From Gammaproteobacteria bacterium (lineage in GTDB: Bacteria; Pseudomonadota; Gammaproteobacteria; Eutrophobiales; Eutrophobiaceae): 64,000 bases of DNA. The stretch lies in NCBI GenBank assembly GCA_965116495.1, contig OZ220696.1:3872001-3936000 (forward strand), in the 5' to 3' direction. The position numbers and the translations under genes were made by a program. Shown piece after piece: positions 14,560 through 31,094 of the stretch (positions are counted from its first letter, which is position 1; every line of letters starts with the position of its first letter). The notes under the pieces were generated by a model, which was not told the DNA's origin, searched no databases, and saw nothing but the letters and a program-made list of their open reading frames with translations.

Positions 14560-15381
14560 TCACCTGGCTGCATTGAGCAGCACCATGACTTCTCCCTTGC
14601 CTTTGTTCGCCATATCGCCGCTGTACAAACGGACTTCCGGGCCGAAATTTCGGAAAAACCGATAACGGCTGCCCATCCGGGAGAGCTGTTTGAAAAACAG
14701 GCGCAGATATTCCATCTTCAACGTACCGCAGTTCGCCAGGGTGGTGCCGATTTTCTCAGGACGCCTGCCCAGTATGATGGTCCCGCGTTTCATCCCGTAA
14801 CCCGGGAGTTTGCCGGATTTGCCCAGTATCAAAATGGTGCCGGCAACCATCCCCGCGCCGCTGAAGTCACCGGCGTCACCACCAATCATGATCATCCCGC
14901 GCCGCATCTTGTCACCGAGACGATTTCCGGCATTGCCCCATACCGTTATCAGGCCGTCCCGCATTCCCTGCATGCTGGTTCGGGCCCCGGCCCCGATGTA
15001 ATCGCCGGCATCGCCTTCGACATCGATCCTGCCCCAGTACATATCGCAGCCGAGCCAGTCGCCGCAACTGCCGTTGACCCTGATTGTGCCGCCTGTCATC
15101 CCGTGTCCGAGGTAACTGCCGCCGTGCGCCTTGACACTGATATGCCCGCGCGTCATCCGGTCGCCTATCCGGGTAACCAGTTCCGTCGTGCGGCGTAATT
15201 CGATATGCTCAGGGTCTTCCCCGCTAATGGAAAACAGCTCCCCGGCCCTGACCGGCCTGGAACCGTAGGCCAGTTCGATCCCGGCGATATTATCCGCGAC
15301 CGACAGCCTGTCCGGTGTCAGCGCTGATAAATCCAGTGTCCGCTGCGGTTTTTTCTTCAAGGTGAAAATCATGGGATTCAT
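14560..15381 (-). CDS. fhcC: Formyltransferase/hydrolase complex subunit C
   Basis: GltB/FmdC beta-helix GxxMxxG repeats; LDLSALTP and GD...GKGE motifs. Confidence 0.92.
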   Translation of the reverse strand: MNPMIFTLKKKPQRTLDLSALTPDRLSVADNIAGIELAYGSRPVRAGELFSISGEDPEHIELRRTTELVTRIGDRMTRGHISVKAHGGSYLGHGMTGGTIRVNGSCGDWLGCDMYWGRIDVEGDAGDYIGAGARTSMQGMRDGLITVWGNAGNRLGDKMRRGMIMIGGDAGDFSGAGMVAGTILILGKSGKLPGYGMKRGTIILGRRPEKIGTTLANCGTLKMEYLRLFFKQLSRMGSRYRFFRNFGPEVRLYSGDMANKGKGEVMVLLNAAR

Positions 15382-16274
15382 TTCAGAATTTCCCTGAGAT
15401 GGAAATGGTGAGGTCCCAGTTTTCCGCCGTAGTTGCCGGCACTGATCCGGTAGATGCCCTTGTCGGGCCCGTTTTTACAGACCGCCTCGATACCGGCGCG
15501 CATGGCGGCGCGGATCGCCGCTTCATTCAGGCCGTCTATGACGATCTCCAAGACGGAGCCGATTTCTTCCGTCAGCACGCTGTTTACCCGGCTTTTCAGG
15601 GTGGGACAGAAGACCTCGTTTGTCGAGGCCGGTAGAAATGAGTATTTCGAGCCTACCTTGGAACCGGAACCGACTATTCCGCCGGGAAACGTGGTAACAG
15701 CACCATCTACGGCGCGAATCGCCTTGACGGCTTTTTCGCAGGCGCTCAGACCGTGACGGGAGGTTTTTGCCATGACAAGGAAATTGCCGCCGCCGATGGC
15801 AGGAACGACGCCGGTGGTTTCTTCGCACAGAAATTCGCCGTGCATGACCGGGATGCGCCAGTAACGGATACCGTCCAGTATTTTTGATATCTGGTGCCCG
15901 TCGCCAAAATATCGCAGGCTTTTACCCAGGGGTAACATGGTATCGCTGTGGGTCCCGGCAAAACAGGCGCTGGTCGCGGTAGTCATTACGGATTGTCCGA
16001 CGCGCCGGGTGAGCTGGTCGGCCAACTGCGATTTCGACATGGCAAACATGATGATCGCTACACCGGGCCTGCCATCCGGGGTTTCTTCCGGTTTCAGTTC
16101 CCGCTCAATATCCGCCTCACAACCGCAGGCAATCACGGACGAAGCAAATCCGGTCAGGGAATTGGCCGCGATGTATGCATACTTCATGGTCATGGCGGTG
16201 ATGATCAGCCGGGTCGCCTTCATGGGGAAGGCTTCCGCAAACGTATCGTCAATGGTTACGCCGTTGATGTTCAT
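15378..16274 (-). CDS. fhcD: Formylmethanofuran:H4MPT formyltransferase (Fhc subunit D)
   Basis: IDDTFAEAF, TPDGRPG, LRYFGDG, GGGN, GSKVGSKY, SAGNYGGKLG. Confidence 0.95.
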   Translation of the reverse strand: MNINGVTIDDTFAEAFPMKATRLIITAMTMKYAYIAANSLTGFASSVIACGCEADIERELKPEETPDGRPGVAIIMFAMSKSQLADQLTRRVGQSVMTTATSACFAGTHSDTMLPLGKSLRYFGDGHQISKILDGIRYWRIPVMHGEFLCEETTGVVPAIGGGNFLVMAKTSRHGLSACEKAVKAIRAVDGAVTTFPGGIVGSGSKVGSKYSFLPASTNEVFCPTLKSRVNSVLTEEIGSVLEIVIDGLNEAAIRAAMRAGIEAVCKNGPDKGIYRISAGNYGGKLGPHHFHLREILK

Positions 16275-16292: not shown

Positions 16293-16431
16293 ATCCGCAG
16301 ATGACGCAGATTAACGCAGATGTTTTCAGGTATTATTTATGCCAGTCTGCTGTATGCCTGCATTCACGATAACAGCCTGAAAGATATAAAACTCTTAATA
16401 TAATCTGCGTTAATCTGCGTCATCTGCGGAT
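16293..16431. repeat. REPIN-like inverted repeat between fhcA and fhcD
   Basis: Perfect 29-bp arms ATCCGCAGATGACGCAGATTAACGCAGAT and its complement around an ~80-bp spacer; right arm encodes the fhcA C-terminus and stop. Confidence 0.85.
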
Positions 16432-18086
16432 AAATCCTGTTTGCAGTCATGCACCAGCAGCGAATGTTGATTATACCCCTCCAATTCGTCACGGCTGAGT
16501 TTGTAGTTTTCCAGGTTCATGGTCATGTACCTGTCAAAATAGCGTTTCAGGGGTTTTTCTATGCCCCGGTCGTAGTCCGGTTCGACCACGTGGGTGGACG
16601 TGGCCGGTATGGCGCAGACCTTGCCGTTCCGGACGCAGAGTTCGCCGCGTTTGAATACGTACTCCGGGCTGCTGAACATGGTCTCTGCGTTGCCGTCGGG
16701 TTTATAGACGGTGATATCCGCGGTTGCTCCAGTACCCAGGTGGCCGAGGTTGTCCAGTCCCAGGCTCCTGGCCGGCGCGGCGCGGGTGAGAATTGCGATC
16801 TCGTATAATGAATATTCCCGGTCGATTGTGGACAGGATACTTGCGCTGGCGGCATCCTTGTTGATAGTGGCCAGCATGTCGTTGCGGAAGCCCTTGTCCA
16901 TGAGCAGCCTGATCAAATGCGGATATGAAGTGAATGGTGCGCCGTTGGGGTGGTCGGTGGTCAAAAAGACGCGCCAGGGATCGTCAACGAGTAAAAATAT
17001 CTCAAGGCCGATACACCACTGGAGGGCATTGACGAAATTCCTGTCCCGGTAGCGGAACGGCACCACGCCGCAGCCGGCATCGCATTCTATGTCCATGCAG
17101 ACCCATTTATTCGGATGGGCGTGAACATGTCCCCTGTGCTGCGTCATACTGTCGGCAGACGTGGTGATGGTCTGGCCGAACATGATCTGGCCGACGTCAA
17201 TGGATACGTTTCCGTTCCGGTTGACAGCCTCTGCTATCCGGGCCGCTTCGGATGAGAATTTCCTGTCACCCTCCTGCCCGTAACTGTGGAACTGTACATG
17301 AGTCAGGTGCAAGGGCTTGCCCTCGGCTGCAGCTATGGTGTCAAGCGTTGTCCGGTAATTTCCGGGCACCCCCAGGTTGCAGCCATGCACGTGCAGTGGA
17401 TGAGGAATGCCGAGGGCGTCCAGTGCGTCAAGCAGCGCGCACAGGATGTTACGTGGGGTGATCCCGTAGCCGTTGTTTTTTTCATCCAGGTCCAGCTTTC
17501 TCTGGTTGAACTTGAACGCATTGATACCCCCCGGGTTCACTACCTTGATGCCCATTGCCCGTGCTGCGTGGATTGTCCAGGCCACATAATCGTTGATCAC
17601 GGATTGGTCTTTTTTGCCCTGCAGCAGGCGCAGCAGGAAATCGTCGTTACCGAGCAGAACGTAAGCGCCCGTGTCCAGCATGGGGGTGTCCGCCATTTCC
17701 AGGTGCGAGGCGCGTGCATTTACAGGCATCATCGCCGGTTCGAAACAGGTGGTATAACCCATTTCGGCATAACGGTAGCCGGTGACGAAACTGGTAGGGG
17801 CAATGGTGCCGGAGCCCGAATGCGTGAGGTCTCCCGGGGACACCGGGTGACTGTCGTGGTCATCTGCAAGTAGTAACCTGGCGATATTGACCTTGCCCCC
17901 GCCGATGTGGGTATGGATGTCAATACCGCCTGCCATCACGATGCGGCCGCCCAGGTTTATTACCTGGTGAATTTTCTGATCCGGCGCCGGTTCGACCAGC
18001 ATGCCGTCCTGGACGTACAGGTCCAGTATTCTGCCGTCTATGCCGTTAGCCGGGTCGTAGACCTTACCGCCTTCGAGCTTTATCAT
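16410..18086 (-). CDS. fhcA: Formyltransferase/hydrolase complex subunit A (amidohydrolase)
   Basis: Start MIKLEGGKVYDP at 18086 (ATGA overlap with fhcB); DIHTH, KVVNPGG, HPLHVH, HVQFHSY, TTDHPNG. Confidence 0.95.
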   Translation of the reverse strand: MIKLEGGKVYDPANGIDGRILDLYVQDGMLVEPAPDQKIHQVINLGGRIVMAGGIDIHTHIGGGKVNIARLLLADDHDSHPVSPGDLTHSGSGTIAPTSFVTGYRYAEMGYTTCFEPAMMPVNARASHLEMADTPMLDTGAYVLLGNDDFLLRLLQGKKDQSVINDYVAWTIHAARAMGIKVVNPGGINAFKFNQRKLDLDEKNNGYGITPRNILCALLDALDALGIPHPLHVHGCNLGVPGNYRTTLDTIAAAEGKPLHLTHVQFHSYGQEGDRKFSSEAARIAEAVNRNGNVSIDVGQIMFGQTITTSADSMTQHRGHVHAHPNKWVCMDIECDAGCGVVPFRYRDRNFVNALQWCIGLEIFLLVDDPWRVFLTTDHPNGAPFTSYPHLIRLLMDKGFRNDMLATINKDAASASILSTIDREYSLYEIAILTRAAPARSLGLDNLGHLGTGATADITVYKPDGNAETMFSSPEYVFKRGELCVRNGKVCAIPATSTHVVEPDYDRGIEKPLKRYFDRYMTMNLENYKLSRDELEGYNQHSLLVHDCKQDLSADDAD

Positions 18087-19321
18087 GCCGGATTGCCTTC
18101 CAATTGTGAGATAACCTCCCTGATGATCCGGGCGGCGCTGGGGGATCCGGAGTCTCTCACTTGTTTCAGGGGCATATTGATGATGTTGTCCGTCCTGAAC
18201 AGACTGCCGGCGTGGTCGATGCCGGGAATTCCCACGGGGATATAAACGTCGGCGTCTGCTGCCCCGGTACGGTATGGGGATAAAATTATCGTGGGGACGT
18301 TTAACGCCGGGGGACGGTCGTCTGCTAAAGTCGAGATCCATAGCAGGCTGTCCACGGCAGATATGTCGGCAGCGGCGCCGGACGGACATCCGGAACGAAA
18401 ATTGACGCCGGTCGGGAATCCGGTCTGCCAGGTAGCCACGCCCTGGAAGGATGCAGCGCCGTTACTGCCGCTGAGTGACAATCCGGCGAAGCGCTGCCGG
18501 GTGTTCAGGTCGCGCGCCAGGTCCAGTATCGAATTGATGATCAGGTCCGCATGGTCCTGCGGTAATGCTGCCGGGCACCATACCAGCACGCCATAACGCG
18601 CGTTCCGTACCATCCCTGCAACCTGGTTCAGTTTGCGGTTTTTTGCCGCCGGTATGGCCTGGTAGTCAGACAGTTGTTCATCTGCCAGTCTGGCGCGCAG
18701 CAGCGCCAGGTTGTCGGCTATTTCATCAGCGTGGCCGGACACGACAACGGGAGCGTGGTCATTGAATTCATTCAACTCCGCAGTACCGGGCCGGCCCAGG
18801 TAGGCCAGTTTCCTGTTGTTTGATGCGGCGAACAGGGAGTAGGGGGATTTGATGAAGCGTTCGATGAACCGGGGATAATCCCCGGTAACGTTTTCACCGA
18901 TAAAGATGACGGTATCCGCCCTGTTTTTCACCTCTGCCAGGGTGGTCATAATCCCGCCCCGGGTCTGTAGCGCTTTCAGGTTATGGCCGGCATGGTGTTC
19001 GTGTGCCTGCAGGAGCGCGGCATCGACCTTTTCGGCGAGGCGCAGGGCTGCGCGTATGCCGTCCACGTCGGTGCCGAGGCCCGCTATCAGCGGTTTGCCG
19101 GACTGTCGAAGTAGCGCGGCTGCGGCTGTTACCGCCTGGTCGATGGTCGCCGGAATGCCTTTAACGCTTGCCTGCGCAGCAGGGGGGGGAGCGGCAAAGC
19201 CCTGCACGGCAAGCCGGCAGTCGTTGGCGGATACGTCAAGTTGTTGCTGATTGTTACGGACCGTCAGGTCATCGCACAAAAGACTGCAAAACGGGCAGGT
19301 TACATTCGCTGTTGACGCCAT
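18083..19321 (-). CDS. fhcB: Formyltransferase/hydrolase complex subunit B (no Mo/W site)
   Basis: CPFCSLLCDD N-terminus, TTLAEVKNRAD, WQTGFP, G.LFRTD; lacks VCHGP and RGH motifs. Confidence 0.9.
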   Translation of the reverse strand: MASTANVTCPFCSLLCDDLTVRNNQQQLDVSANDCRLAVQGFAAPPPAAQASVKGIPATIDQAVTAAAALLRQSGKPLIAGLGTDVDGIRAALRLAEKVDAALLQAHEHHAGHNLKALQTRGGIMTTLAEVKNRADTVIFIGENVTGDYPRFIERFIKSPYSLFAASNNRKLAYLGRPGTAELNEFNDHAPVVVSGHADEIADNLALLRARLADEQLSDYQAIPAAKNRKLNQVAGMVRNARYGVLVWCPAALPQDHADLIINSILDLARDLNTRQRFAGLSLSGSNGAASFQGVATWQTGFPTGVNFRSGCPSGAAADISAVDSLLWISTLADDRPPALNVPTIILSPYRTGAADADVYIPVGIPGIDHAGSLFRTDNIINMPLKQVRDSGSPSAARIIREVISQLEGNPA

Positions 19322-19336: not shown

Positions 19337-20701
19337 TCAGTCCAGCAGGGCCAGCATTTCATTGACATAGGTGTATTTCTCCCGGGGTTTGCCTGCAGGT
19401 TCACCCCGTGTAATCTCGGCAGCATCGATTATTTTCCAGTCTGCGAAGCTGATATGGCGGATATTACTCCGGTCGAGGATTTCGTAACACCCCGCCGCGC
19501 CGCTCTTGTTTGCACCGGTATCCAGGCTGTCAAGGTCATCCATTAACATGCTTATTGTTTCCACGCTGTCTGCCTTGTTGGTACCGATGATGCCGGTAGG
19601 GCCGCGTTTTATCCACCCGGCCGCATACAAGCCGGGTTCCACCGCGCCGTCCTTTGTGACCCTGCCTTTGTCATTCGAAAACACCCCTCGTGATTCGTCA
19701 AACGGTACTCCCGGCATCGGAATGCCGTGGTAACCTATACTGCGAAATACGATTCCCGCGTCAATACTGAACGTCTCACCACTGCCTCTTGCCGACTGCC
19801 GGAATGCCTCCCCTGACAGGGTGTTTTTTTCAATTAGCAGTCGTTCGACCCTGCCGGCGCCGGATATTTCCCTGGGACTCTTGAGGAAAGTAAAGATACA
19901 GCGTCGCTCACCGGCCGCTTCCCGGCCGGCAAAACCGCAGAACAGGTCGTAGATTTTTTTATTGCCGGTATTTGCCAGTTCGGCTTCGCTTTCCGGGTTC
20001 AGCGCCAGTTCACCGGCGTCGATCACCGGGTCGCAGGCAGCCAGTACGCCGAACTCCTTCAATTCCTTGGAGGTGAACTTGGCCTGTGCCGGTCCGCGCC
20101 GGCCGATGACATAGATATTTGTTACTTTGCTCTCGGCCAGGGCATCCAGGGCGTGTCCGGCGATATCCGTGTGCTTCAGTTCATCAACTGTTTTGGCCAG
20201 TATCCGGCTCACGTCGGCGGCGACGTTGCCCTGGCCGATGATGACGGCGGTCTCGTGGGACAGGTCAAACTCCCTGTCGCGGTAATCGGGATGGCCGTTG
20301 TACCAGCCGACAAATTCCGTTGCCGTATAGCTGCCGGGAAGGTCTTCCCCGGGAATGCCGAGACGGCGGTCGGTCTCAGCCCCGCAGGTCAGGATCACCG
20401 CGTGGTGTGTTGCCCGCAGTTCATCTACGCTGATATCGGTGCCTACAACGACGTTCCCGATGTAATTGAACTGTTCCGCTTCGGCGATCCTGGCATAGAC
20501 CTTGATAGCCTGTTTCAGTTTCGGGTGATCCGGCGCAACGCCGCTTCTCACCAGGCCATACGGTACCGGCAAGCGTTCGAACATGTTGATCCTGACTTCG
20601 AGGTTCGCTTTGAAGAGCGCGTCAACAGCGTAGAATCCGCTGGGACCGCTACCGACTACGGCAACGATCAAGGGGTTATCCTGGGTTCCTAATCGACTCA
20701 T
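19337..20701 (-). CDS. Ferredoxin-NADP+ reductase, adrenodoxin-reductase/FprA type
   Basis: VGSGPSG.Y, PYGLVR.GVAPDH, FVGWYNGHP, IGQGNVA.D, RRGP.QA.F, GWIKRGPTG.IGTN, GKPREK. Confidence 0.92.
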   Translation of the reverse strand: MSRLGTQDNPLIVAVVGSGPSGFYAVDALFKANLEVRINMFERLPVPYGLVRSGVAPDHPKLKQAIKVYARIAEAEQFNYIGNVVVGTDISVDELRATHHAVILTCGAETDRRLGIPGEDLPGSYTATEFVGWYNGHPDYRDREFDLSHETAVIIGQGNVAADVSRILAKTVDELKHTDIAGHALDALAESKVTNIYVIGRRGPAQAKFTSKELKEFGVLAACDPVIDAGELALNPESEAELANTGNKKIYDLFCGFAGREAAGERRCIFTFLKSPREISGAGRVERLLIEKNTLSGEAFRQSARGSGETFSIDAGIVFRSIGYHGIPMPGVPFDESRGVFSNDKGRVTKDGAVEPGLYAAGWIKRGPTGIIGTNKADSVETISMLMDDLDSLDTGANKSGAAGCYEILDRSNIRHISFADWKIIDAAEITRGEPAGKPREKYTYVNEMLALLD

Positions 20702-20879
20702 GATTTACACAATAATATTCAGCCTGGATGTTCACATCCACTGACGTAATATCCGGGTTGGAAGAGAAACGTATCCCGAACACCCGACGCCGCGCCGAAC
20801 GGGTTTGTCCGGGGATGAACTGGGGAACCTGTTAAGCCAGGGGTTCCCTGAATTTGCAGAATACCTGCCAGCCGGAGTA

Positions 20880-21198
20880 CTAGCCCGGATTTCTCACCAG
20901 GTCGCTTGTTGCTATCTGAAACATATTTGCTATCAATAATTTATGGTAATAGTTTTACTATTCTGTCATTACAGACTGCGCTTGATGCGCCCTCGCTTGT
21001 CTTTTGTCCGCCAGCGGGCACGTGCTTCCTCAACCATAGCTACGGCTATGCTTTCGGTCGCAGGCGCCCGCTGGCGGGACAAATCTGCCAGGAGCAGATT
21101 TGGACGTCCGCAGGACGCCCGCAGGGTGTGCGCCACGGAAGGCGCACATCTAAAATCCGGCGCGATCATCGCATCACCTGGTGAGAAATCCGGGCTAG
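20880..21198 (+). mobile_element. MITE family A, copy 1 (carries nested 76-bp module)
   Basis: CTAG flanks, perfect 19-bp TIR CCCGGATTTCTCACCAGGT; body homologous to 26849-27097; no transposase. Confidence 0.85.
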
Positions 21199-21500
21199 AA
21201 ACCCAGGGCGGCTTTCCTTTCGTCCGCGCCGGGTAACGGATCCATGGTATCGGTGATGACCGGCAGCTCCTTGGATTTTTCCGCGTTGATTTCAATCCAC
21301 TCGTACTTGTCCTCGGGCAGGTCATCTTCCTCGTAGATTGCCTCGACCGGACATTCCGGCAGGCACGCACTGCAATCGATACAGACCTCCGGGTCGATAT
21401 ATAACATCTGATCGTCGTAGTGGAAGCATTCTACCGGGCATACCGCGACGCAATCGGTATAGCGACAGTCTTTACAGTTATCAGTTACGATAGTTGTCAT
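21195..21500 (-). CDS. fdxA: 7Fe ([3Fe-4S][4Fe-4S]) ferredoxin, Azotobacter FdI/FdxA type
   Basis: VTDNC..C.YTDCV.VCPV.CF and CIDC.AC.PECP..AI.EEDDLP motifs; AGGAG RBS. Confidence 0.92.
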   Translation of the reverse strand: MTTIVTDNCKDCRYTDCVAVCPVECFHYDDQMLYIDPEVCIDCSACLPECPVEAIYEEDDLPEDKYEWIEINAEKSKELPVITDTMDPLPGADERKAALGF

Positions 21501-21554
21501 GATATTCTCCTAAATAAGCCCATCTGCGATCAGTCTACCCCGGCAGCCGTGGTT

Positions 21555-22364
21555 TTATCCAGCATATAATAATATTTCACCCCGGTTCAATTCAACACTG
21601 TCGCCGCAGTAACGTTTGAATAAACCCTGAAGGTATTCTTCACCTATCGCAAAGACATCCATCAGGTAGATGAGGTAAAGCATCAGGTAACCCGGCCGGT
21701 AAGTGCAAGAATAGCTGAAGGTGGGCAGCAAGTGTGCGCTCTTCAGACTGGCGATGCTGCCCCGTTTCATGCCCGCCCCGGTGCGGATACCCAGTTCTCC
21801 CAGTACAATTATGCTGCCGGAGAGCATATTGACCCCGGTGAAGTCCCCGCTGTTGCCGGCAACGGCGATTAACCCGTTGCGCATTGCATTGCCGGTCTCG
21901 TTACGCACATTGCCGTGAATGATGATTTCCCCGCCTGTCATGCCCATGGTTGCACCCCGGTAGGCGCTCCCTACCATGTGGCCTGCATTGCCGCGAATTT
22001 CAATTCTGCCGCCGGACATCTCCGGCCCAACCCAGTCGGCGGCATTGCCGTTAACCCGTATTTCACCCCCGCTCATGGCGGCCCCAAGGTGTTCGCCGAC
22101 GTCACCTTCCACCTGGATGGTCCCCCGTGACATCCCGGCGCCGATGAGTTTTACCCGCCCCAGGTGGTCTCCCTGCACGTTGATGACCCCGTCGGATTGG
22201 CCTGTCACGCTGAAGAAGTCACCGATATAACGGGGTTCACTGCCATGCATGACGGTCAGTTTTTCCACGCTCGCCGGGGTCTGGCCGGTGAGGCGGGCAG
22301 GGGTAATGTTGTCCGCCTCAAGGGGAACGTCCGGTGTCGCGATTTGTTTCAGCGAAAAAGGCAT
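21555..22364 (-). CDS. fwdC: Formylmethanofuran dehydrogenase subunit C (second paralog)
   Basis: PLEADNITP, G.HLGA.MSGG, GSAYRG...GMTGG, LLPTF, GD......GEI. Confidence 0.9.
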   Translation of the reverse strand: MPFSLKQIATPDVPLEADNITPARLTGQTPASVEKLTVMHGSEPRYIGDFFSVTGQSDGVINVQGDHLGRVKLIGAGMSRGTIQVEGDVGEHLGAAMSGGEIRVNGNAADWVGPEMSGGRIEIRGNAGHMVGSAYRGATMGMTGGEIIIHGNVRNETGNAMRNGLIAVAGNSGDFTGVNMLSGSIIVLGELGIRTGAGMKRGSIASLKSAHLLPTFSYSCTYRPGYLMLYLIYLMDVFAIGEEYLQGLFKRYCGDSVELNRGEILLYAG

Positions 22365-22378
22365 CTCAGGAACCTACC

Positions 22379-22403
22379 GGGGACAGATTTCAAACCTGTC
22401 CCC
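22379..22403. repeat. GGGGACAG REP-like palindrome
   Basis: GGGGACAG-ATTTCAAAC-CTGTCCCC; same arms at 58762-58812. Confidence 0.7.
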
Positions 22404-22440
22404 TGTCTGCAAAAATAGTTCATCCGGCGATACACAGCGG

Positions 22441-23331
22441 TCAGGCCACCAGTTCATGCAGGTTAATCTTGTACTGGCCGAGGTTGCCGCCGTAGTTTCC
22501 GGCAGTGATCTGCCTGATCCCCGGTTTTGCCGCAGCCCGGATGCCCGCAGCCATGGCCTCCCTCACCGCGCGCTCTGTCAGGCCGTCAATCACGATTTCC
22601 AGGGCGCAGTTGACATCTGCCGGGAGGCTGCTGTCGGTTACCGCTTTCAGCGTTGGACAGTAGGCATCATTGGTGGACGCGGGCAGGGTTTTGTAACGTG
22701 AACCCACTTTGCTGCCGCTGCGCACGACACCATCGGGAAAGGGCAGGATAATATCCTTTACCGCAGCCATGGCCCGGGTGGCCGCGCCGGCTGCAGCCAG
22801 GGCTTTTTTCTCATCGGTCCCCAGTATGATGATATTCCCTCCGCCTACGGATTTCTGTACGGCAAACGATTCTTCCACGGTAAATTCACCATCCATGACC
22901 GGGATACGCCAGAACCGCCGCTGCGCCAGTTTCTTGCTGCCCTGGAAGCCATCGCCGAAATAACGCAGTTGCGAACCGACCTGGACAACCTCTTCACCAT
23001 CCAGGCCGTTGAAACAAGCCGTAGTCGGGCAGGTCATCACACACTGGCCGATGCGTTCAAGCAGGCGCTTGCCTACCGACGCCTTGTCCATGGCGAATAA
23101 CAGGATGCTGACGCCCGGCCGGCGGTCCGGGGTCTGATCGGGTGGCAGGATGCTCTCTATACCGGCCTCACATTTACAGCCGATCACCGAGGTGGCAAAC
23201 CCGGTCATCGATTGTGCCGCGGCCAGGCTCCAGCGTTTGGTCGCCGCGGTAACAATCACCCGCGCTCCCCACATGCTGAAGGCTTCGGCAAAGGTTCCGA
23301 CAATTTCCGTTGACCTGAGCTTCATCATCAC
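22441..23331 (-). CDS. ftr: Formylmethanofuran:H4MPT formyltransferase (second paralog)
   Basis: TFAEAF, TGFATSVIGC.CEAG, TPD.RPG, RIGQCV.TCPTTACF, LRYFGDG, AGNYGG.LG. Confidence 0.93.
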   Translation of the reverse strand: MMMKLRSTEIVGTFAEAFSMWGARVIVTAATKRWSLAAAQSMTGFATSVIGCKCEAGIESILPPDQTPDRRPGVSILLFAMDKASVGKRLLERIGQCVMTCPTTACFNGLDGEEVVQVGSQLRYFGDGFQGSKKLAQRRFWRIPVMDGEFTVEESFAVQKSVGGGNIIILGTDEKKALAAAGAATRAMAAVKDIILPFPDGVVRSGSKVGSRYKTLPASTNDAYCPTLKAVTDSSLPADVNCALEIVIDGLTERAVREAMAAGIRAAAKPGIRQITAGNYGGNLGQYKINLHELVA

Positions 23332-24965
23332 ACCGTTGCGATCACTTCATGGTCATGCAGGTAACTGTCATTGACCGCATAATTCGCAAATTCGATGGAA
23401 TAATAGCTCTCAAAAAACGGCCTGACCTCGGCGACGATGGATTCGTCGTATGCGGGTTCCGTATGCAGGAATTTCCCGTAGAAATCCCGGCAGAACTCGT
23501 GGTTGTCGATAATGACGTTACCTGATTTAATCACGTAACGGGGCGCGTTGAACATGGCCTCCTTGTCGTCCATCTCATCGTAGATGGTGATATCCGCGTC
23601 CGCGCCCGCGCCCAGGTGCCCCTTGTTTTTCAGGTTCAGTGCCCGGGCCGGGCCGGCGCGGGTGATGATTGCTATCTCATTGAGTGTATATTCGCGGTCC
23701 AGTTCATTCAGTATCGTACCGTTGATGGCCTTCTGGTTGACGCGCTTGATTTCCTCCTTGCGGAATTCCTTGTCCATCAGCAGGCGGATCAGCTTGGGGT
23801 AGCTCATAAAGGAGCCGCCATTCGGATGGTCGGTGGACAGGACGATACGCCAGGGGTCCCTGGACAGCAGGAACAGTTCCAGGCCGATAGCCCATTGCAG
23901 GGCATGGACATAGACATGCTCCTGGTAGCTGAACGGAACGATACCGCAACCGCTCTCGCATTCCGTATCGGCGTTGACCCATTTCGCTTTTTTAAAACCC
24001 CTGAGCATGTAGGCCAGCGGTGCGTCCGCGGTCATGATCGTGGATTTGCCGAACATGACCTGGCCGACGTCGCAGGTGATATTGGGGTGGTCGTTAACGT
24101 ACTCGGCGATCTGCCGGGACGCGGATTTGGGGTTCTTGCCGAGCTCTCCCGCGTAGCTGTGGAATTGGATGTGGGCCAGGTGCGCGCGTCTGTCGCCCGC
24201 CGTTTTCATGGTCTCCAGGGTGGTCTCGAAGTTGCCGCTATGGCCCAGGTTGTTGCAGTGAATATGGGGCGGATGCGGTAGACCCAGTTCATTGACCGTT
24301 TCAATAAAAGAATCGATTACCTGCCGGGGTGAGACCTCTATAAACTCACTTTTTTCATCAATATCCTTGACGTTTGAATTCTTTTTGCCCTTCCAGGGTT
24401 CATCTCCGCCCGGGTTCACCAGCTTGGTCGTGTAGGCCTTGGTCGCGTTAATCCACCAGGCTACCGCATGGCGAAACTCTTCCTTGCGGCCGGCCTTGAT
24501 CAACTGCTGTAAGAAAATATTATTACCCAGGAGTACGTAAAATCCTTTATCAATAACCGGCGTATCGTGAAACTCTTCAATGGTATGCCGGGCGCCGATA
24601 GGTGTGACGGCCGCTTCCATGGCGGTGGTGTAGCCCAGGGTGGCATAACGGTACCCTGTTGCAAAGGTGGAAGGAACGGTACCGCCGGCGCCGGACCGGG
24701 TGTGTTCCGTGGCAGGGTGGGGATCGCGGCGATGGTCTTCAGGCTGCAGTTTCCTGGCCAGGTTTACCTTGGGGCCGGCTATATGGCAGTGGATATCCAC
24801 GCCGCCGGGCATCACTACCATGCCGCTGACGTCTATCCTTCGGGGCGTGGAGGAAGGCGTCTCGACCATGCGCCCCTGTTCCAGGTAAAGGTCTTTTATT
24901 GCCCCGTCGATGCCGTTGGCCGGGTCATGAACCTTGCCCCCTGCAAGTTGAATGCATTCCGTCAT
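23328..24965 (-). CDS. fwdA: Formylmethanofuran dehydrogenase subunit A (second amidohydrolase paralog)
   Basis: DIHCHIAG.KVN, KLVNPGG, H.HCNNLG, HIQFHSY, STDHPNGG metal ligands. Confidence 0.93.
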   Translation of the reverse strand: MTECIQLAGGKVHDPANGIDGAIKDLYLEQGRMVETPSSTPRRIDVSGMVVMPGGVDIHCHIAGPKVNLARKLQPEDHRRDPHPATEHTRSGAGGTVPSTFATGYRYATLGYTTAMEAAVTPIGARHTIEEFHDTPVIDKGFYVLLGNNIFLQQLIKAGRKEEFRHAVAWWINATKAYTTKLVNPGGDEPWKGKKNSNVKDIDEKSEFIEVSPRQVIDSFIETVNELGLPHPPHIHCNNLGHSGNFETTLETMKTAGDRRAHLAHIQFHSYAGELGKNPKSASRQIAEYVNDHPNITCDVGQVMFGKSTIMTADAPLAYMLRGFKKAKWVNADTECESGCGIVPFSYQEHVYVHALQWAIGLELFLLSRDPWRIVLSTDHPNGGSFMSYPKLIRLLMDKEFRKEEIKRVNQKAINGTILNELDREYTLNEIAIITRAGPARALNLKNKGHLGAGADADITIYDEMDDKEAMFNAPRYVIKSGNVIIDNHEFCRDFYGKFLHTEPAYDESIVAEVRPFFESYYSIEFANYAVNDSYLHDHEVIATV

Positions 24966-24971
24966 ATTGGC

Positions 24972-26336
24972 TTACTGCATGGGTGCTGCGGCTTTGCTCT
25001 CTCCGCTTGCTCCTCTGGCCTGGCCTTTCGCCAGAACCAGTTCGCGCACACGCTTTTTGACTGCGGTAAGAATTTCCTCATCGTTCGGAAAAGGTGAATC
25101 AAAGGCCTTGCGCAAGGTGATAGGCACGTCGTCCATGCGGTATACGGTACCGGCCGTATTGATGCCGTAGGTAGAGGTCCGAAAAGCAACGTGCGCCAGC
25201 TTGCTGGTGAGAGTCGCCTTGGTATCCAGGCATATCACCGGAATTCTGGACAGGTGGTCAATAGCCGCCTGGGGAAAATTGGACGCAGGGTCGGTGGCAA
25301 CAATCAAAGCGGCGTCGACATCTTGCTTGGCCAGTAAATCGACGGTGGTGAACTCGCCCGGGTTGAAACGGGGGAACCCCCGGCTGAAATTAACACCGAA
25401 GGGATAGCCGGTCTGCCAGGACATGACGTTATCTGCGCCGGTTACGTTGCCATGGCCGCGCACAGGCTTGGCAACGAAATGGGTATATTCATTCAGGTCC
25501 GTAGCCAGGGCCAGCAGCGCGCCTGAATTAAAGTGCCGGCCGCGGGTCATGGTCAGGCCCATGCCGAAAAACAACACGCCGTAGCGGCAGTTTTTCATCC
25601 TGTCGACCAGTTCCTGCAGGGTTTCCAGGCTGATTCCGGTAATCTCCTCGATTTCCGGGTCGATTTTGCGGTTTTTCACCAATGCCCTCAGGGCCCATAA
25701 CAACTCGAAGTCTTTTCCGGGTTTTACCTGGATGAACTGGTGAGCTGCCGGCGCGCTGGGTGTCCTGCGTACGTCGACCATGACCACGTGACGGTCCTTT
25801 TTGCCGCGCGGCGTAAACATCCCTTTGGCGGTGACGGCATAACGGCCGAAATGGCGCGGGTGGGACTCCGCAGGATTGCCGCCCCAGTAAATGACCAGGT
25901 CGGCGCGGTTTTTTACCTCGCCCAGGGTCATGGTGCTTTCACCGACGCCCTGCAAGGCAATGCCGGAAGGCCCGTGGCAGACTGAAGTTGTGGTGTCGAT
26001 GTTGCCCTTGATGGTATCGGTAATGGCCACGGCTTGTTTCTGCGCCTCACAGGTCGTATCGCTGAGACCGTAAGTGATGGGGAACCTGGCGTTAACCAGG
26101 GTCCTGGCGGCTTCTTCCACTGCCTCGTCAATGGAGACGGGCCGATTATCTATCATGGCGGCAGGAGCGTCTTCCTCGATATAGTGCTCCGCAAACCAGG
26201 CTTTGCCGAGTATGCAGGCGTTCTTTGACTTGGTAATCCGTTTTTCGTCCAGGTCCACCGTCAGGATCATGTCATCACAGACACAACCACAGAAGGTACA
26301 GGTGGCATTTTCTACAACTTTGACGTTTTCACTCAT
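24972..26336 (-). CDS. fwdB: Formylmethanofuran dehydrogenase subunit B with intact Mo/W-pterin catalytic motifs
   Basis: Start MSENVKV (GGGGAGA RBS); CTFCGCVCDD...C [4Fe-4S] motif; SVCHGP (metal Cys + His); TLGEVKNRAD; WG.NP..HPRH; RGH.NV.G; GT.YRMD.VP. Confidence 0.92.
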   Translation of the reverse strand: MSENVKVVENATCTFCGCVCDDMILTVDLDEKRITKSKNACILGKAWFAEHYIEEDAPAAMIDNRPVSIDEAVEEAARTLVNARFPITYGLSDTTCEAQKQAVAITDTIKGNIDTTTSVCHGPSGIALQGVGESTMTLGEVKNRADLVIYWGGNPAESHPRHFGRYAVTAKGMFTPRGKKDRHVVMVDVRRTPSAPAAHQFIQVKPGKDFELLWALRALVKNRKIDPEIEEITGISLETLQELVDRMKNCRYGVLFFGMGLTMTRGRHFNSGALLALATDLNEYTHFVAKPVRGHGNVTGADNVMSWQTGYPFGVNFSRGFPRFNPGEFTTVDLLAKQDVDAALIVATDPASNFPQAAIDHLSRIPVICLDTKATLTSKLAHVAFRTSTYGINTAGTVYRMDDVPITLRKAFDSPFPNDEEILTAVKKRVRELVLAKGQARGASGESKAAAPMQ

Positions 26337-26368
26337 GATTTCTCCCCACGGAATCGCGGCAAGCCATT

Positions 26369-26713
26369 TTAACTGATTTTTTCCACCTGGACAGAAATAT
26401 GTTTTGACAGGGGCATTCCGCTGCCGGCTGTGTCGCTTTCCATCAGGCGGCTCGACACAGGCCCGTAAGCTATGAACATCATGCCTTCCGGCAGGTCGGT
26501 GGCTTTTTTGGAAACGCAGGTAACAACGACCTCCCCGATATGATTTTTCAAGCACAGCTTATCACCGTTGTCGAAACCGAGCCGGGCCATATCATCCGCA
26601 TTTATTTCGACGGTGGATGTGACGTCCCGGTACTCATCGCCGAGCTTCCCCTTGTTAAGGGAAGTCCCCTGTTTACTGGATCGTCCCGGGATTAACAACA
26701 TGGTTACAGGCAT
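26369..26713 (-). CDS. fwdD: Formylmethanofuran dehydrogenase subunit D (molybdopterin dinucleotide-binding)
   Basis: LI.GRS.KQG, D..LG, P.G..FI.YGP, T.G.GMP..K...V.V; first gene of the run, directly before fwdB. Confidence 0.88.
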   Translation of the reverse strand: MPVTMLLIPGRSSKQGTSLNKGKLGDEYRDVTSTVEINADDMARLGFDNGDKLCLKNHIGEVVVTCVSKKATDLPEGMMFIAYGPVSSRLMESDTAGSGMPLSKHISVQVEKIS

Positions 26714-27097: not shown

Positions 27098-27189
27098 GTC
27101 AGAGTTTTCTTAGAATTCATGGATGTCCCAAATTAGAATACTTGGAATTTATGGATATCCCGAATTAGAATATCCCCGTGGTTTTGAAG

Positions 27190-28206
27190 ATGAAGACACG
27201 AGAAGACATCGCTGCTGCTGAAACTGTGAGGGTTGCCGCGGCAGCCCGCCTGCACCTGGGCTTCCTGGATTTGAACGGTGGCTTGCACAGGCGCTACGGC
27301 AGTATCGGGGTCGGGATAACGGGTTTTTCCACGGTGGTGAGTGTCTGCCATAGCGACCGGGTTGATATCGAGGGAGCGGATGATGAATATATCGCCCGGA
27401 TAACGGAAACCGTCCTGGATTATTTCCGCCTGAATTCCGGGGTCAGGGTTAAAGTTGAAGAATATATTCCCCGGCACCAGGGTCTGGGTTCCGGCACACA
27501 GATGGCCCTGGCATTGGGCGCTGCCATCACCGGCCTGTACGGTATCGACACCACGGTTGACGAACTTGCGCTTGCAACAGGAAGAGGAGCGCGTTCCGGG
27601 GTAGGGCTGGGGGTGTTCAAGGAGGGTGGTTTCATTCTTGACAGCGGCAAGACCGGAGGACACGGGTTGCCGACGCTGATATTCCGCCACGACCTTCCTG
27701 AAGAATGGCAGTTCGTCCTGGTGATGGATGAACGGGCCAAAGGGATAAACGGGATGGAAGAAATCGAAGCGTTCAATTCATTGCCGGATATGTCCCCCGA
27801 GGCCAGCGCGGAGATTTGCCAACAGGTATTGATGCGGATGCTGCCGAGTATTATAGAAAAAGATTGCGGGCAATTCGGTGCATCCGTCAGCAGGATACAG
27901 GCGCGCATCGGCGACTATTTCAGCGCTGCCCAGGGAGGTATGTTTGCCAGTGACAATGTAAGACGGACGCTTGAATTCCTGTTGGAAAACAAGGCAACAG
28001 GTATCGGCCAGACATCCTGGGGGCCGACCGGGTTTGCTGTATTCCCGGATAAAAAATCGGCAATGCAGGCCGTAGACAATTTAATCGGGAGGGATATGCA
28101 GGTAAGCCTGCGGTTTGCCGGGGCGGAAAACAACAAGGCCCAAGTCAACAGACTGGTGACGGCGGAGGCAGGACTGAAATCAGACCCCGCAACCCTGTTA
28201 CGGTAA
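27190..28206 (+). CDS. mptG: beta-ribofuranosylaminobenzene-5'-phosphate synthase (H4MPT biosynthesis, Orf4)
   Basis: ARLHLGFLDL, P.H.GLGSGTQ (GHMP), R.ARSG.G...F..GGF..D.G, GQ.SWGPTG. Confidence 0.9.
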   Translation: MKTREDIAAAETVRVAAAARLHLGFLDLNGGLHRRYGSIGVGITGFSTVVSVCHSDRVDIEGADDEYIARITETVLDYFRLNSGVRVKVEEYIPRHQGLGSGTQMALALGAAITGLYGIDTTVDELALATGRGARSGVGLGVFKEGGFILDSGKTGGHGLPTLIFRHDLPEEWQFVLVMDERAKGINGMEEIEAFNSLPDMSPEASAEICQQVLMRMLPSIIEKDCGQFGASVSRIQARIGDYFSAAQGGMFASDNVRRTLEFLLENKATGIGQTSWGPTGFAVFPDKKSAMQAVDNLIGRDMQVSLRFAGAENNKAQVNRLVTAEAGLKSDPATLLR

Positions 28207-28270
28207 ACTGCTATAAACATCAGTAATTCCCTCATCCGGCATAATCAGCGGGGGCCCCTGTATAAACATT

Positions 28271-28299
28271 TGGACATTTGCCGGGCAGTGTTTTACAAT
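28271..28299 (+). promoter_or_regulatory. Possible sigma70 promoter upstream of mch
   Basis: TGGACA-N17-TACAAT. Confidence 0.35.
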
Positions 28300-28502
28300 T
28301 CGCTCCCTTGCCGTAGGTATAACGTGATTAGCGTGGTGCAGATGGGGCCTTACGTTTTGGTGTGCCGACAGGTGTACAGCCCGTATATCAACATGCGCAT
28401 TTCACGCCGCGCTGCCGACGGGTTTTTATCCTGCTCGGAAAATTTCGTGAATTATTGGTCCGGGAAGACCCGGATGTGAATACACACATTACTATTAATG
28501 AC

Positions 28503-29498
28503 ATGAGAAATTTTGGCGCAGAAGAAACAAACCTGAGCATCAACACCTTGATCGCTCCGAAGGTAAATCAATTGATCAACACTTCGGGTGGGCTCGGATT
28601 GAATACCAGCCGCGCGGAAAACGGAAGTTTATTGATAGACGCGGGCATCGCCGGCTGTGGCAGTATTGAGGCCGGCAGACAAATTGCTGAAATCTGTCTT
28701 GGAGGACTGGCTACTGCGAGATTGCGGGCTTCGCGAGACTATGAAAACTGGCCGTGGCACGTGGACGTTCATACCAGCCATCCGGTGATTGCCTGTCTGG
28801 CCAGCCAATACGCCGGTTGGAGTCTTTCCAACGGCAAAGGCAAGGGGACATTCAACGCGTTGGGGTCCGGTCCGGCCAGGGCCCTGGGCAGCAAAGAACC
28901 GTTGTTTGATGAAATCGGTTATCGTGATAAAGCGGACCAAACCTGTATCATACTGGAAGTTGATACTATCCCGCCGGTTGAAATTGCCGATAAAATTGCC
29001 CGGCGGTGTCAGGTTTCGCCGGAAAACCTCACGCTTATCATGACGCCTACCTCAAGTTTGGCCGGCTCAGTGCAGGTTGTCGCCCGGGTATTTGAGGCCG
29101 CATTGCATAAGGCCCACACTATGCGTTTTCCCCTGAAAAGAATTGTAGACGGCATGGGCACCGTCCCCTTGTGTCCCCCCGCGCCGGATTTTCTGACGGC
29201 CATGAGCCGTACCAATGATGCGATTTTGTTCGGTGGCCAGGTCCATTTGTTTGTCAATGCGGGTAATGAAGATGCAGAGGCGCTGGCACGCGCGTTGCCA
29301 AGCAATACGTCAGAAGACTACGGCAGGCCGTTTGCCGAGGTATTCAGAAGCGCCGGTTTTGATTTCTACAAGCTTGATCCCATGTTGTTCAGCCCGGCTA
29401 TGGTGATCGTGAGTTCTCTCAGTACCGGGCGTTCGTTTAAGGCAGGAGAGATCAACCTTAGCGCCTTGAACAAATCATTCACCAGCATATTCAGTTAA
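28503..29498 (+). CDS. mch: Methenyl-H4MPT cyclohydrolase
   Basis: IDAG, ICLGGL, PV.ACL.SQYAGW, GSGPARAL, RTNDAILFGG, FY..DP.LFSPA; exact start uncertain. Confidence 0.95.
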   Translation: MRNFGAEETNLSINTLIAPKVNQLINTSGGLGLNTSRAENGSLLIDAGIAGCGSIEAGRQIAEICLGGLATARLRASRDYENWPWHVDVHTSHPVIACLASQYAGWSLSNGKGKGTFNALGSGPARALGSKEPLFDEIGYRDKADQTCIILEVDTIPPVEIADKIARRCQVSPENLTLIMTPTSSLAGSVQVVARVFEAALHKAHTMRFPLKRIVDGMGTVPLCPPAPDFLTAMSRTNDAILFGGQVHLFVNAGNEDAEALARALPSNTSEDYGRPFAEVFRSAGFDFYKLDPMLFSPAMVIVSSLSTGRSFKAGEINLSALNKSFTSIFS

Positions 29499-29527
29499 AC
29501 GGTAACTGTGTAACACCCGCAACATGG

Positions 29528-29626
29528 GAACATGGGGTCAGGTCGCACAATGCACGTTCTATCTTTTCTACAACTTACTTATCCAGTTCTTTGCCTGTGT
29601 GCATTGTGCGACCTGATCCCATGTTC
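29528..29626. repeat. REPIN-like element (GGGGTCAGGTCGCACA family)
   Basis: 28-bp arms GAACATGGGGTCAGGTCGCACAATGCAC / GTGCATTGTGCGACCTGATCCCATGTTC, one mismatch. Confidence 0.85.
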
Positions 29627-29628
29627 TC

Positions 29629-30462
29629 GTGGTTAACTTGGCCGCGCAGGTGTATGACTGTTTCATCTGCGATATCAATGCGTTAAAACCTGGTAACGTA
29701 GGCCGGCACGGCGCCGGCCACGGTATGGAATGTGCGGACTTTATCAGGAGTGCACAAGTCGTCACGCCCATCCTGTGTAATCATCGGCTTGGGCTTGGCG
29801 AAAGAATTCTGGCAGGTGTCGAGGCCACTCTTGCCGCGGTTCACTGCAATACCAACCTGGGCATGCTATTACTCATCGCACCTGTCATCAGGGTGTTTGA
29901 ACAGCTTGTTTCTCCGGAAGATTTCAAGGATACGATCAAACCCACCCTGATGTCGTTGGGGCGGCGGGAGGCACAGGACATCTTTGCGGCCATTCGCCTG
30001 GCCAATCCGGGGGGGCTTGGCAAGGTGGATAAATATGACGTAAACTCACCACTGGAAATTGATATATTTTCAGCTATGGATGCCGCGAAGGACCGTGACC
30101 TTATTGCCTTGCAATACGCAAACGGTTACCGGGAAGTCGTTAATTTGGGCATAAAATGCTTGCAAAACTATCACAATCGCTGGAATAGTGTAGAATGGGC
30201 GGTCGTTGCCTGTTATCTTATGTATATGGCGAGTTTCCCGGATTCCCATGTCCGCAGAAAACACGGAATGGAAATAGCGGAGCAGGTGAGGAAGAATACA
30301 GTACTTGTGCGGGAGCGGTTTACGGACTGCGATAATCCGGGGGATGCGAAAGATGTGTTGATGATCTTTGACAGGGAACTCAAAGAATCGGAAATTAATC
30401 CGGGCACCTGTGCAGATCTGACGATAGCCAGCCTGTTGTTGTACCGGCTCGGTGTTGGTTGA
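29629..30462 (+). CDS. CitG-like protein of H4MPT clusters (Orf7)
   Basis: KPGNV, NTNLG..LL.AP, F.AIRLA.PGGLG, DSH..RK.G, NPGT.ADL. Confidence 0.88.
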   Translation: MVNLAAQVYDCFICDINALKPGNVGRHGAGHGMECADFIRSAQVVTPILCNHRLGLGERILAGVEATLAAVHCNTNLGMLLLIAPVIRVFEQLVSPEDFKDTIKPTLMSLGRREAQDIFAAIRLANPGGLGKVDKYDVNSPLEIDIFSAMDAAKDRDLIALQYANGYREVVNLGIKCLQNYHNRWNSVEWAVVACYLMYMASFPDSHVRRKHGMEIAEQVRKNTVLVRERFTDCDNPGDAKDVLMIFDRELKESEINPGTCADLTIASLLLYRLGVG

Positions 30463-30581
30463 TTCTGGCTGTTGTAGCTGCTGGTGCGGGTGATAGTTGA
30501 TAGACCTTACGGAGGTTTATTATGTTTAAAATTCTTGACAAACTTACTAGTATATTTAAATCAGAAGAAGGAGGTAATGAT

Positions 30582-31094
30582 ATGGCCGTTATTGATAGAG
30601 TACTCGTTGGTGAAGCATTGGTGGGAGATGGTAATGAGGTCGCACATATCGACCTGATCATGGGGCCCCGTGGTAGCGCGGCAGAGACCGCGGCCTGCAA
30701 TGCCCTTACCAACAATAAAGACGGTTTTACATCCCTGTTGGCAGTCGTATCACCAAACCTGGCATGTAAACCTACTACGGTTATGTTCAACAAGGTGACT
30801 ATCAAGGGCGCAAAGCAAGCCGTGCAGATGTTCGGTCCGGCTCAACGTGCAGTGTCGATGGCGGTCATGGATTGCGTTGAAGATGGCACCATTCCTGCCG
30901 ATGAAGCCGATGATATTTTTATCTGTGTCGGTGTGTTTATACACTGGTTGGCAGAGGACGATGGCAAAATTCAGGATTACAATTACGAATCCGTGAAGAT
31001 GTCAATCAAACGTGCTGTTGCTCGTGAACCCAAGGCTTCCGAAGTATTGAGCAAGCGGGGAGACGCGGATCATCCGTTCCAGGCTCACTCATAA
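30582..31094 (+). CDS. fae: Formaldehyde-activating enzyme (alternative in-frame start at 30522)
   Basis: [51 protein letters not shown]. Confidence 0.97.

Follow-up and report, generated by a model that had tools for sequence, protein, structure and literature searches.

Two described complexes stand closest to an operon that we analyzed in a 64,000-nt stretch of contig OZ220696.1 (GCA_965116495.1; hereafter the window) from a methylotrophic-type gammaproteobacterium of the family Eutrophobiaceae: the archaeal formylmethanofuran dehydrogenase (Fwd) and the bacterial formyltransferase/hydrolase complex (Fhc). The operon holds one gene set resembling each, and the upstream, Fwd-like set (fwdD-fwdB-fwdA-ftr-fwdC) is the subject here. 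Archaeal Fwd, as represented by the tungsten enzyme FwdABCDFG of Methanothermobacter wolfeii (5T5I) and its relatives 9SFI, 9SW6, and 7BKB, shares with this set the Fe-S motif of the B subunit, the catalytic Cys/His/Arg, a separate D subunit, the metal site of A, and the β-helix of C. It differs in having FwdF/G, which are absent from the window operon, and in its stand-alone Ftr and the β-hairpin C-terminus of FwdC, whereas the window has ftr within the operon and a FwdC with an Fhc-type C-terminus; the window set is also bacterial and predicted to be oxidative and NADP-linked. The F420-reducing Fwd of Candidatus Ethanoperedens thermophilum (8RJA; PMC11493965) is likewise oxidative, with a flavin module to a two-electron carrier replacing the polyferredoxin (statements on published work refer to those portions of each paper that were accessible). 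Its acceptor is F420, whereas the acceptor predicted for the bacterial set, which has its own Ftr, is NADP+, reached via FdxA and a ferredoxin-NADP(H) reductase (FNR) or via a fused CysJ.

The Fhc of Methylorubrum extorquens (6S6Y; PMC6926001), there described as the only known bacterial methylofuran enzyme, has in common with the window the B-A-D-C gene order, the built-in formyltransferase, and the C-terminal region of C, but it has lost the redox site and FwdD, both of which the upstream set retains. The downstream set is Fhc-like in its B-A-D-C order, its loss of the catalytic Cys/His/Arg, and its want of a D partner. A third relative, the fwdDBA-ftr-fwdC operon of Hakuba Actinobacteria, has the same order as the upstream set and a FwdB with Fe-S domain and catalytic Cys, and was considered possibly active (Merino 2020, PMC7325909); its host lacks methanopterin synthesis, and the accessible text describes neither a second Fhc nor an NADP-linked exit. 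Elsewhere, fwdD was reported in NC10, Firmicutes, and Synergistetes and as absent from Proteobacteria (Chistoserdova 2016, PMC5020050), 149 bacterial FwdB were counted (Wells 2023), transcribed fmd/fwd genes of Alphaproteobacteria were interpreted as formate-forming in an oxygen-deficient-zone preprint, and PMC12296737 mentions fwdD for methanogens only. Within the texts accessible to our literature search, no report was found of a characterized bacterial Fwd, a dual Fwd/Fhc operon, or a FwdD-CysJ fusion. An initial annotation, made from the window sequence, had presented the dual operon as its best candidate for an undescribed system; no characterized example was found, but bacterial fwdDBA-ftr-C is already in print for other phyla, Actinobacteria among them, and is the majority state in this family. 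The FwdD-CysJ fusion is new here. Judged from its sequence, the upstream set most likely functions like Fwd, yet it departs from the archaeal complex in two features and is most likely not an Fhc. Its FwdABCD and Ftr probably oxidize the formyl group of formyl-tetrahydromethanopterin (formyl-H4MPT) to CO2 and pass the electrons via FdxA and FNR to NADP+.

Active-site residues and composition of the upstream set

FwdB carries the Fe-S motif CTFCGCVC...KNAC (Cys13/16/20/41) and the catalytic motifs SVCHGP (Cys120, His121) and RGHGNV (Arg293), with residues counted, as in FhcA, from the ATG (at 26336 for FwdB). In alignment with 5T5I, Cys120, His121, and Arg293 fall on Cys118, His119, and Arg288 of M. 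wolfeii FwdB, the catalytic roles of which are given by Hemmann et al. (PMC6926001). On the TIGR03129 model (cut-off 328) FwdB scores 513 bits and FhcB 240, and FwdB matches five archaeal FwdB chains with E values of 1e-100 to 1e-117 versus 4e-12 for M. extorquens FhcB (6s6y). FhcB has Ala/Gly/Ser where 5T5I has the catalytic Cys/His/Arg, and with only one fwdD in the genome it stands without a D partner. This pattern supports a predicted division into a redox-competent Fwd-type complex upstream and a redox-dead Fhc downstream. Three observations of the initial annotation are thereby confirmed: two full B/A/Ftr/C sets lie in one minus-strand run; the second B subunit has the CTFCGCVC...C, SVCHGP, and RGHGNV motifs and is accompanied by a separate FwdD (PF01568 and PDB FwdD matches); and FhcB lacks both the catalytic residues and a D partner. 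The label of a normal Fhc is apt for the catalytic loss but not for the N-terminus, as FhcB retains the Fe-S cysteines Cys9/12/16/35, whereas the N-terminal Fe-S domain is missing from M. extorquens FhcB (PMC6926001). A CxxCxxxC start is also present in FhcB of Azospirillum oryzae and Thiodictyon. The decay of FhcB is graded: this lineage and Rhodospirillaceae retain the cysteines, the Methylococcales loci have lost them, and in M. extorquens the whole domain is gone.

The best fold matches of an AlphaFold model of FwdB (predicted local distance difference test score, pLDDT, 72.9) are 8RJA, at the top, and 5T5I, with E ~1e-37 and template-modeling (TM) scores of 0.67-0.68, compared with E 4e-16 and TM 0.49 for FhcB. 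In a tree of 155 B sequences (31 of 150 representatives were removed for length), the window FwdB falls in a clade with short branches that comprises 21 intact bacterial proteins (support 1.0) and the window FhcB in a distinct, long-branched clade of 13 (support 1.0). A FwdB nested in FhcB, the outcome that the tree check proposed with the initial annotation was designed to detect, is thus ruled out; as the tree has no named archaeal tips, the archaeal link of FwdB rests on the PDB matches.

The remaining subunits divide between the two described architectures. FwdA scores 472-474 bits against archaeal FwdA versus 357 against FhcA, and its metal-site motifs (four His, Asp, and carboxy-Lys) are all there: DIHCH, KLVNPGG, HIHCNN, HLAHIQF, and TDHPN. 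The best PDB match of Ftr is FhcD (6s6y_D, 317 bits; archaeal Ftr, 299), and FwdC residues 16-266 align to FhcC (6s6y_C), C-terminus included, whereas the match to 5t5i_C ends at 206. The C-terminal region of FhcC, with its helices, has been proposed as the dock of the formyltransferase. Because FwdC has an Fhc-type C-terminus and Ftr is closest to FhcD, the upstream complex is likely a hybrid that combines Fhc architecture with a live redox site, and in it Ftr may dock and methylofuran may be tethered. The earlier term archaeal-style accordingly suits FwdB and FwdA but not the FwdC C-terminus or Ftr. In the A and C trees, the fwd-linked copies stand apart from proteobacterial fhc-linked copies, which cluster with the named Fhc of Azospirillum and Thiodictyon; in the Ftr tree (midpoint rooting) the fhc-linked clade is supported at 0.996 and the fwd-linked copies are unresolved.

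Selection on these genes was gauged by the ratio of nonsynonymous to synonymous substitution (dN/dS, median against 12 close loci), which is 0.069 for fwdD, 0.043 for fwdB, 0.039 for fwdA, 0.077 for ftr, 0.128 for fwdC, 0.015 for fdx, 0.076 for fnr, 0.211 for fhcB, and 0.116 for fhcA; fwdB is under strong purifying selection. Identity between the upstream and downstream paralogs is 27% for B, 46% for A, 49% for Ftr, and 34% for C. This divergence (27-49%) and the dN/dS of 0.04 rule out the upstream set as a pseudogene or a recent duplicate.

Electron exit and NADP(H) modules

No FwdF or FwdG polyferredoxin subunit was found in the operon, to which that search was confined; an FdxA-type ferredoxin is encoded instead. 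The adjoining FNR is of the sequence type of Mycobacterium tuberculosis FprA and adrenodoxin reductase (1lqt FprA, E 4.5e-112; adrenodoxin reductase, E 1.5e-100) and is full-length, with the FAD and NADP motifs GQGNVAAD and RRGP. Across 66 loci, many of them cut by contig ends, fnr was seen in 32 and fdx in 30. The fnr gene adjoins fwd in Gammaproteobacteria, Rhodospirillales, Gemmatimonadales, and one Methylococcales genome.

An unrelated module occurs in Methylococcales, where a fwdD frame of ~730 aa encodes FwdD joined to flavodoxin, FAD, and NADPH domains and scores 740 and 708 bits on the CysJ model TIGR01931 (cut-off 668). A guess from frame length that the fusion partner was Fdx-FNR proved wrong, the domains being CysJ-type. 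The fusion has the full domain set of the CysJ sulfite-reductase flavoprotein, from which it differs in being joined to FwdD and mostly without a CysI partner. Among 201 Methylococcales genomes, a sample centered on a carrier and perhaps enriched, FwdD occurs in 29 (21 in frames of 727-770 aa, three cut at contig ends, and five stand-alone) and the FwdB gene in 27, all of them among the 29; the CysJ part was seen directly in 15 loci and 5 genomes, and the remaining fusions were assigned by frame length. A protein search returned 83 clusters, with the FwdD part matched in 82, the NADP motif in 81, the FAD motif in 82, and the FMN motif in 81; most of the named clusters carry the annotation sulfite reductase. 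Only 3 of the 21 fusion genomes (incomplete assemblies) yielded CysI, each with a separate cysJ beside cysI, and a role of the fused CysJ as sulfite-reductase partner is not supported. As 18 of the 21 lack CysI, the fused reductase likely serves Fwd. One fusion gene adjoins the methanofuran gene mfnB. That a reductase is fused to the pterin-capping subunit speaks most strongly for a possible exchange of electrons between the complex and NADP(H).

Four of the five stand-alone fwdD genes adjoin a ferredoxin and a 1,216-1,219-aa Nfn-like flavoprotein, one of these four having fdx-fnr as well, and the fifth has a ferredoxin at the contig edge. The Nfn-like flavoprotein and ferredoxin, which lie upstream of fwdD (e.g. 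L109:1080-4739 and L112:10657-14313), are a possible third electron exit. In L112, genes further upstream resemble a membrane transhydrogenase, as judged from sequence starts. By tblastn, neither CysJ nor an Nfn-like protein was found in the genome of the window. The modules point mainly to NADP+ as the predicted electron exit, not to a low-potential pool. Of the branch point suggested initially, between formate release by Fhc and low-potential electron capture by Fwd, the formate branch fits FtfL and the serine-cycle cluster described below, and the low-potential branch is probably to be replaced by one to NADP+.

Proposed reaction and its alternatives

In the proposed reaction, Ftr, docked on the Fhc-type C-terminus of FwdC, would transfer the formyl group to methylofuran (MYFR), FwdA would hydrolyze it to formate within the protein, and the formate, led through an internal channel, would be oxidized to CO2 at the Mo/W site of FwdB/D. 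Electrons would run from the FwdB [4Fe-4S] cluster to FdxA, FNR, and NADP+, with the FwdD-fused CysJ-type FMN/FAD/NADPH reductase in place of FdxA/FNR in most Methylococcales carriers. The neighboring Fhc would set formate free, to be used by FtfL and the serine cycle or by NAD-linked formate dehydrogenase; it would provide formate for assimilation, while Fwd would complete the oxidation and supply NADPH. The same two electrons would be obtained by either route; the gain would lie in NADPH rather than NADH and in avoiding free formate, with no extra energy.

The potential of NADP+ is -320 mV. With E0' of formyl-methanofuran at -530 mV (PMC11493965), formyl oxidation with NADP+ is calculated at -40.5 kJ/mol and CO2 reduction from NADPH at ~40 kJ/mol uphill. 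The reverse direction is infeasible with NADPH alone, and CO2 fixation is unlikely; of the two directions left open by the initial annotation, oxidation is the one favored. The occurrence of two unrelated NADP(H) modules likewise argues for oxidation to CO2 with NADPH formation. With rather less assurance, but still on balance, we favor a wider proposal, that a lineage of aerobic-type bacterial C1 oxidizers, including ~1/7 of the sampled Methylococcales genomes, owns an undescribed NADP-linked formyltransferase/dehydrogenase with tethered methylofuran. This complex would convert formyl-H4MPT to CO2 and NADPH without free formate, would have been connected on separate occasions to at least two NADP(H) modules unrelated to each other (FdxA-FprA and FwdD-CysJ), and would be a surviving intermediate between archaeal Fwd and bacterial Fhc, in which the docking of Ftr preceded the loss of the redox site.

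Several observations weigh against NADP-linked formyl oxidation. The active-site segments of the FwdB model have pLDDT <50, so the model is evidence of fold only and leaves the pocket unconfirmed. At least 12 other molybdopterin enzymes depend on the molybdenum-cofactor (Moco) genes, which are therefore permissive, not specific. The genome has no MtdB orthologue, its sole Mtd being of the MtdA type and adjoining fchA (G000:C1:1158033-1158932, L156), and flux into formyl-H4MPT is therefore uncertain. Rnf, a possible taker of ferredoxin electrons, is present in 23/23 genomes of the genus. Finally, FNR is retained in 11/11 family genomes without any B subunit and in the relatives G006 and G011, both of which have lost fwd, and no FNR was found in the single-contig genome G665, which retains fwd. 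A strict dedication of Fdx-FNR to Fwd is thereby ruled out; since FNR persists without Fwd, the pair has a further job.

The Rnf and FNR observations bear on an alternative that we regard as improbable, though it is the strongest of those considered: formyl-MYFR is oxidized to CO2, but the electrons of the reduced ferredoxin go to Rnf or to other users at low potential, and FNR is a housekeeping gene within the operon. It is consistent with the presence of Rnf throughout the genus, with the persistence of FNR and fdx after loss of fwd or of the entire C1 island, and with the ferredoxin and Nfn-like neighbors of stand-alone FwdD in 4/5 Methylococcales; however, the FwdD-CysJ fusion links the same enzyme to NADP(H) without ferredoxin, fnr remains next to fwd across classes and phyla, and FNR is missing from five complete Fhc-only genomes. 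A further alternative, that FwdBD is an ordinary formate dehydrogenase acting on free formate or that the complex is a second hydrolase with a structural metal site, draws on FhcB, which keeps its Fe-S cysteines without dehydrogenase function and so shows that motif retention alone can mislead. We consider it unlikely, as Cys/His/Arg and FwdD are retained together under strong selection, the genome has a separate NAD-linked formate dehydrogenase, and formate dehydrogenase genes are also retained by Fwd-only relatives. Least likely of all, and very doubtful, is reductive operation, in which CO2 fixed as formyl-MYFR would take up electrons or supply C1 units at low oxygen, with ferredoxin reduced by reversed Rnf: the archaeal direction of the enzyme, the presence of Rnf, and the absence of MtdB, the usual oxidative entry, would suit it, but the operon lacks FwdF/G, the ~40 kJ/mol barrier from NADPH excludes reduction by the CysJ-fused form, the sets are flanked by genes for Fae and a methanol-type dehydrogenase, and irreversibility was concluded for the oxidative archaeal precedent 8RJA at a similar potential gap (PMC11493965).

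Locus, distribution, and genome context

The 11 co-directional genes run in the order fwdD-fwdB-fwdA-ftr-fwdC-fdxA-fnr-fhcB-fhcA-fhcD-fhcC, with intergenic gaps of ≤76 bases except between fdx and fnr (493, mostly a repeat resembling a miniature inverted-repeat transposable element, MITE) and between fhcA and fhcD (135). The span assigned initially, 19337..26713, covers the fwd set but leaves fhcB-A-D-C outside, and the ferredoxin and FNR genes inside it went unmentioned. On the narrow model NF042908, FwdD scores 77.5 bits, under the cut-off of 175.

Features of the locus (positions within the window, except for the fusion examples, which lie in Methylococcales loci)
Feature	Position	Strand	Description
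fwdD	26369..26713	-	114 aa, pterin-capping domain IV subunit; PF01568 above cut-off; PDB FwdD matches 2ki8, 5t5i_D
fwdB	24972..26336	-	454 aa, predicted Mo/W-bis-PGD (pyranopterin guanine dinucleotide) and [4Fe-4S] subunit; TIGR03129 513 bits
fwdA	23328..24965	-	Predicted binuclear-metal formyl-MYFR amidohydrolase; TIGR03121
ftr	22441..23331	-	Formyl-H4MPT:MYFR formyltransferase, within operon; TIGR03119
fwdC	21555..22364	-	β-helix scaffold, Fhc-type C-terminal region (predicted Ftr dock)
fdxA	21195..21500	-	FdxA-type ferredoxin, 7Fe-type Cys spacing; predicted first electron acceptor; NF045490 120.8 bits, cut-off 135
MITE-like repeat	20880..21198	.	Separates fdx from fnr; terminal inverted repeats of 23 bp; not part of system
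fnr	19337..20701	-	FprA/adrenodoxin-reductase-type ferredoxin-NADP(H) reductase
fhcB	18083..19321	-	Predicted redox-dead scaffold; four Fe-S cysteines present, catalytic Cys/His/Arg gone
fhcA	16410..18086	-	Formyl-MYFR hydrolase; top PDB match FhcA 6s6y_A, 438 bits
fhcD	15378..16274	-	Formyltransferase of Fhc; TIGR03119; clusters with named Fhc sets
fhcC	14560..15381	-	Top PDB match FhcC 6s6y_C
H4MPT/methylofuran pathway genes	27178..35117	.	mptG, mch, citG-like orf7, fae, hisA-like, mfnF-like, pabB, mfnE-like
Pyrroloquinoline quinone (PQQ) alcohol dehydrogenase region	8954..14522	.	DYDG motif (lanthanide/XoxF-type); neighbors pseudoazurin, xoxJ-like, SoxYZ-like
FwdD-CysJ fusion examples	L066:7532-9742, L079:7485-9698, L081:7660-9840, L095:1084-3306

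Relatives of the repeat at 20880-21198 and of another MITE-like palindromic element at ~26830-27116 number in the dozens across the genome (58 and 29 blastn matches). Between the divergent fwdD and mptG, a 32-nt tandem pair occupies 27109-27172; fhcA and fhcD have a 48-nt inverted repeat between them (16293-16431). No riboswitch or other RNA family was found within 8000-36000 of the window, and promoter and terminator scans gave matches no more frequent than chance. The PQQ alcohol dehydrogenase is the likely formaldehyde source; at 10164-13753 its gene is followed by genes for a pseudoazurin-like cupredoxin and an xoxJ-like protein, in a place where a cytochrome c acceptor gene is usual. At 52857-55604, a 915-aa molybdopterin oxidoreductase has PhsA as its best family but scores far under the cut-off. 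Ribonucleotide reductase genes and kdtA/dsbC-like genes border the island in the window, and the same genes enclose fdx-fnr in two relatives without the C1 island (L146, L147).

The gene string is conserved, as the genome survey suggested in the initial annotation bore out: the species-genome scan gave the 66 loci noted above, in Gammaproteobacteria, Methylococcales, Rhodospirillales, Gemmatimonadota, one Chloroflexota, and two Planctomycetota. Of the 64 non-planctomycete loci, 62 have all three FwdB motifs in full, and the other 2 are cut or gapped. The two planctomycete B proteins have partly lost the site and have no adjoining fwdD; their genes (L085, L086) lie outside any fwd operon, that of L086 with an in-frame stop near the N-terminus. 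Within the genus, fwdB is present in 20/22 other genomes at 83-96% identity. Across the family, a B subunit scoring ≥490 bits occurs in 78/101 genomes (motifs checked in part) and no B in 11; the Fwd-type copy stands alone in six genomes (5 loci checked) and the Fhc-type in eight (7 checked), and the finding of both kinds of relative is expected if the two sets close the same step. An even sample of 400 other Pseudomonadota yielded a B gene in 10 and the intact type in 1, itself of this family, with motifs read in 4 of the 10 and the others assigned by score. The Fwd-type module is thus common in this family, most of whose genomes have it, patchily distributed among Methylococcales, and rare in other groups. 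No cultured carrier was found, every named cluster member inspected being a metagenome-assembled genome (MAG), and all 7 plasmid matches are at 25-28% identity, with the catalytic motifs absent from the two checked. In four Fwd-only relatives (L134, L135, L136, and L142, three with genomes of 1.4-1.5 Mb) fwd-fdx-fnr runs directly into formate dehydrogenase genes; fnr is split in L136. The relative genome G700 is frameshifted in both fwdB and fhcA (L141:6053-7412 and 14155-15809), by assembly error or decay.

The search for Mo/W cofactor and uptake genes proposed at the outset was successful: moaA, fdhD, mobAB, moeA, moaC/E, modA, and tupA/B/C-like genes are present in the genome, the last scoring under their narrow cut-offs. 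The tupA-like gene lies 2 Mb from the tupB/C-like genes (L088:6748-7563 and L133:452-2136), and at G000:C1:1666894-1676991 (partly L090) Moco synthesis genes adjoin mfnB, an orf20-like gene, and a pterin dehydratase of the C1-cofactor pathway. FtfL and an NAD-linked formate dehydrogenase are also encoded, as is a cluster read as a serine cycle (sga-like, mcl-like, mtkAB, hpr-like, and ppc), in which mtkA and ppc alone pass their cut-offs; no RuBisCO or hexulose-phosphate synthase exceeds its cut-off in the genome. In M. extorquens, formate feeds the serine cycle via FtfL. Divergent from ftfL is a reductive-dehalogenase-like gene (L087:12294-13385; TIGR02486, under cut-off). MtdB is present in the clusters of many relatives.

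The studied bacterial route has free formate as the product of the H4MPT pathway (PMC6926001), and in the accessible literature that we searched no description was found for methylotrophs of an NADP-linked step from carrier-bound formyl to CO2. The occurrence of fwdD in this lineage contradicts the statement that it is absent from Proteobacteria (PMC5020050). The proposed evolutionary order from Fwd to Fhc becomes testable, and a small Fwd, probably in oxygen-exposed cells, would be assayable through NADPH. If the proposal is true, metabolic models would change for MAGs in which both sets share an annotation or the FwdD fusion is labeled sulfite reductase, and the redox-active twin of Fhc would be a direct source of NADPH for methylotrophs and some methanotrophs and a switch between assimilation and complete oxidation.

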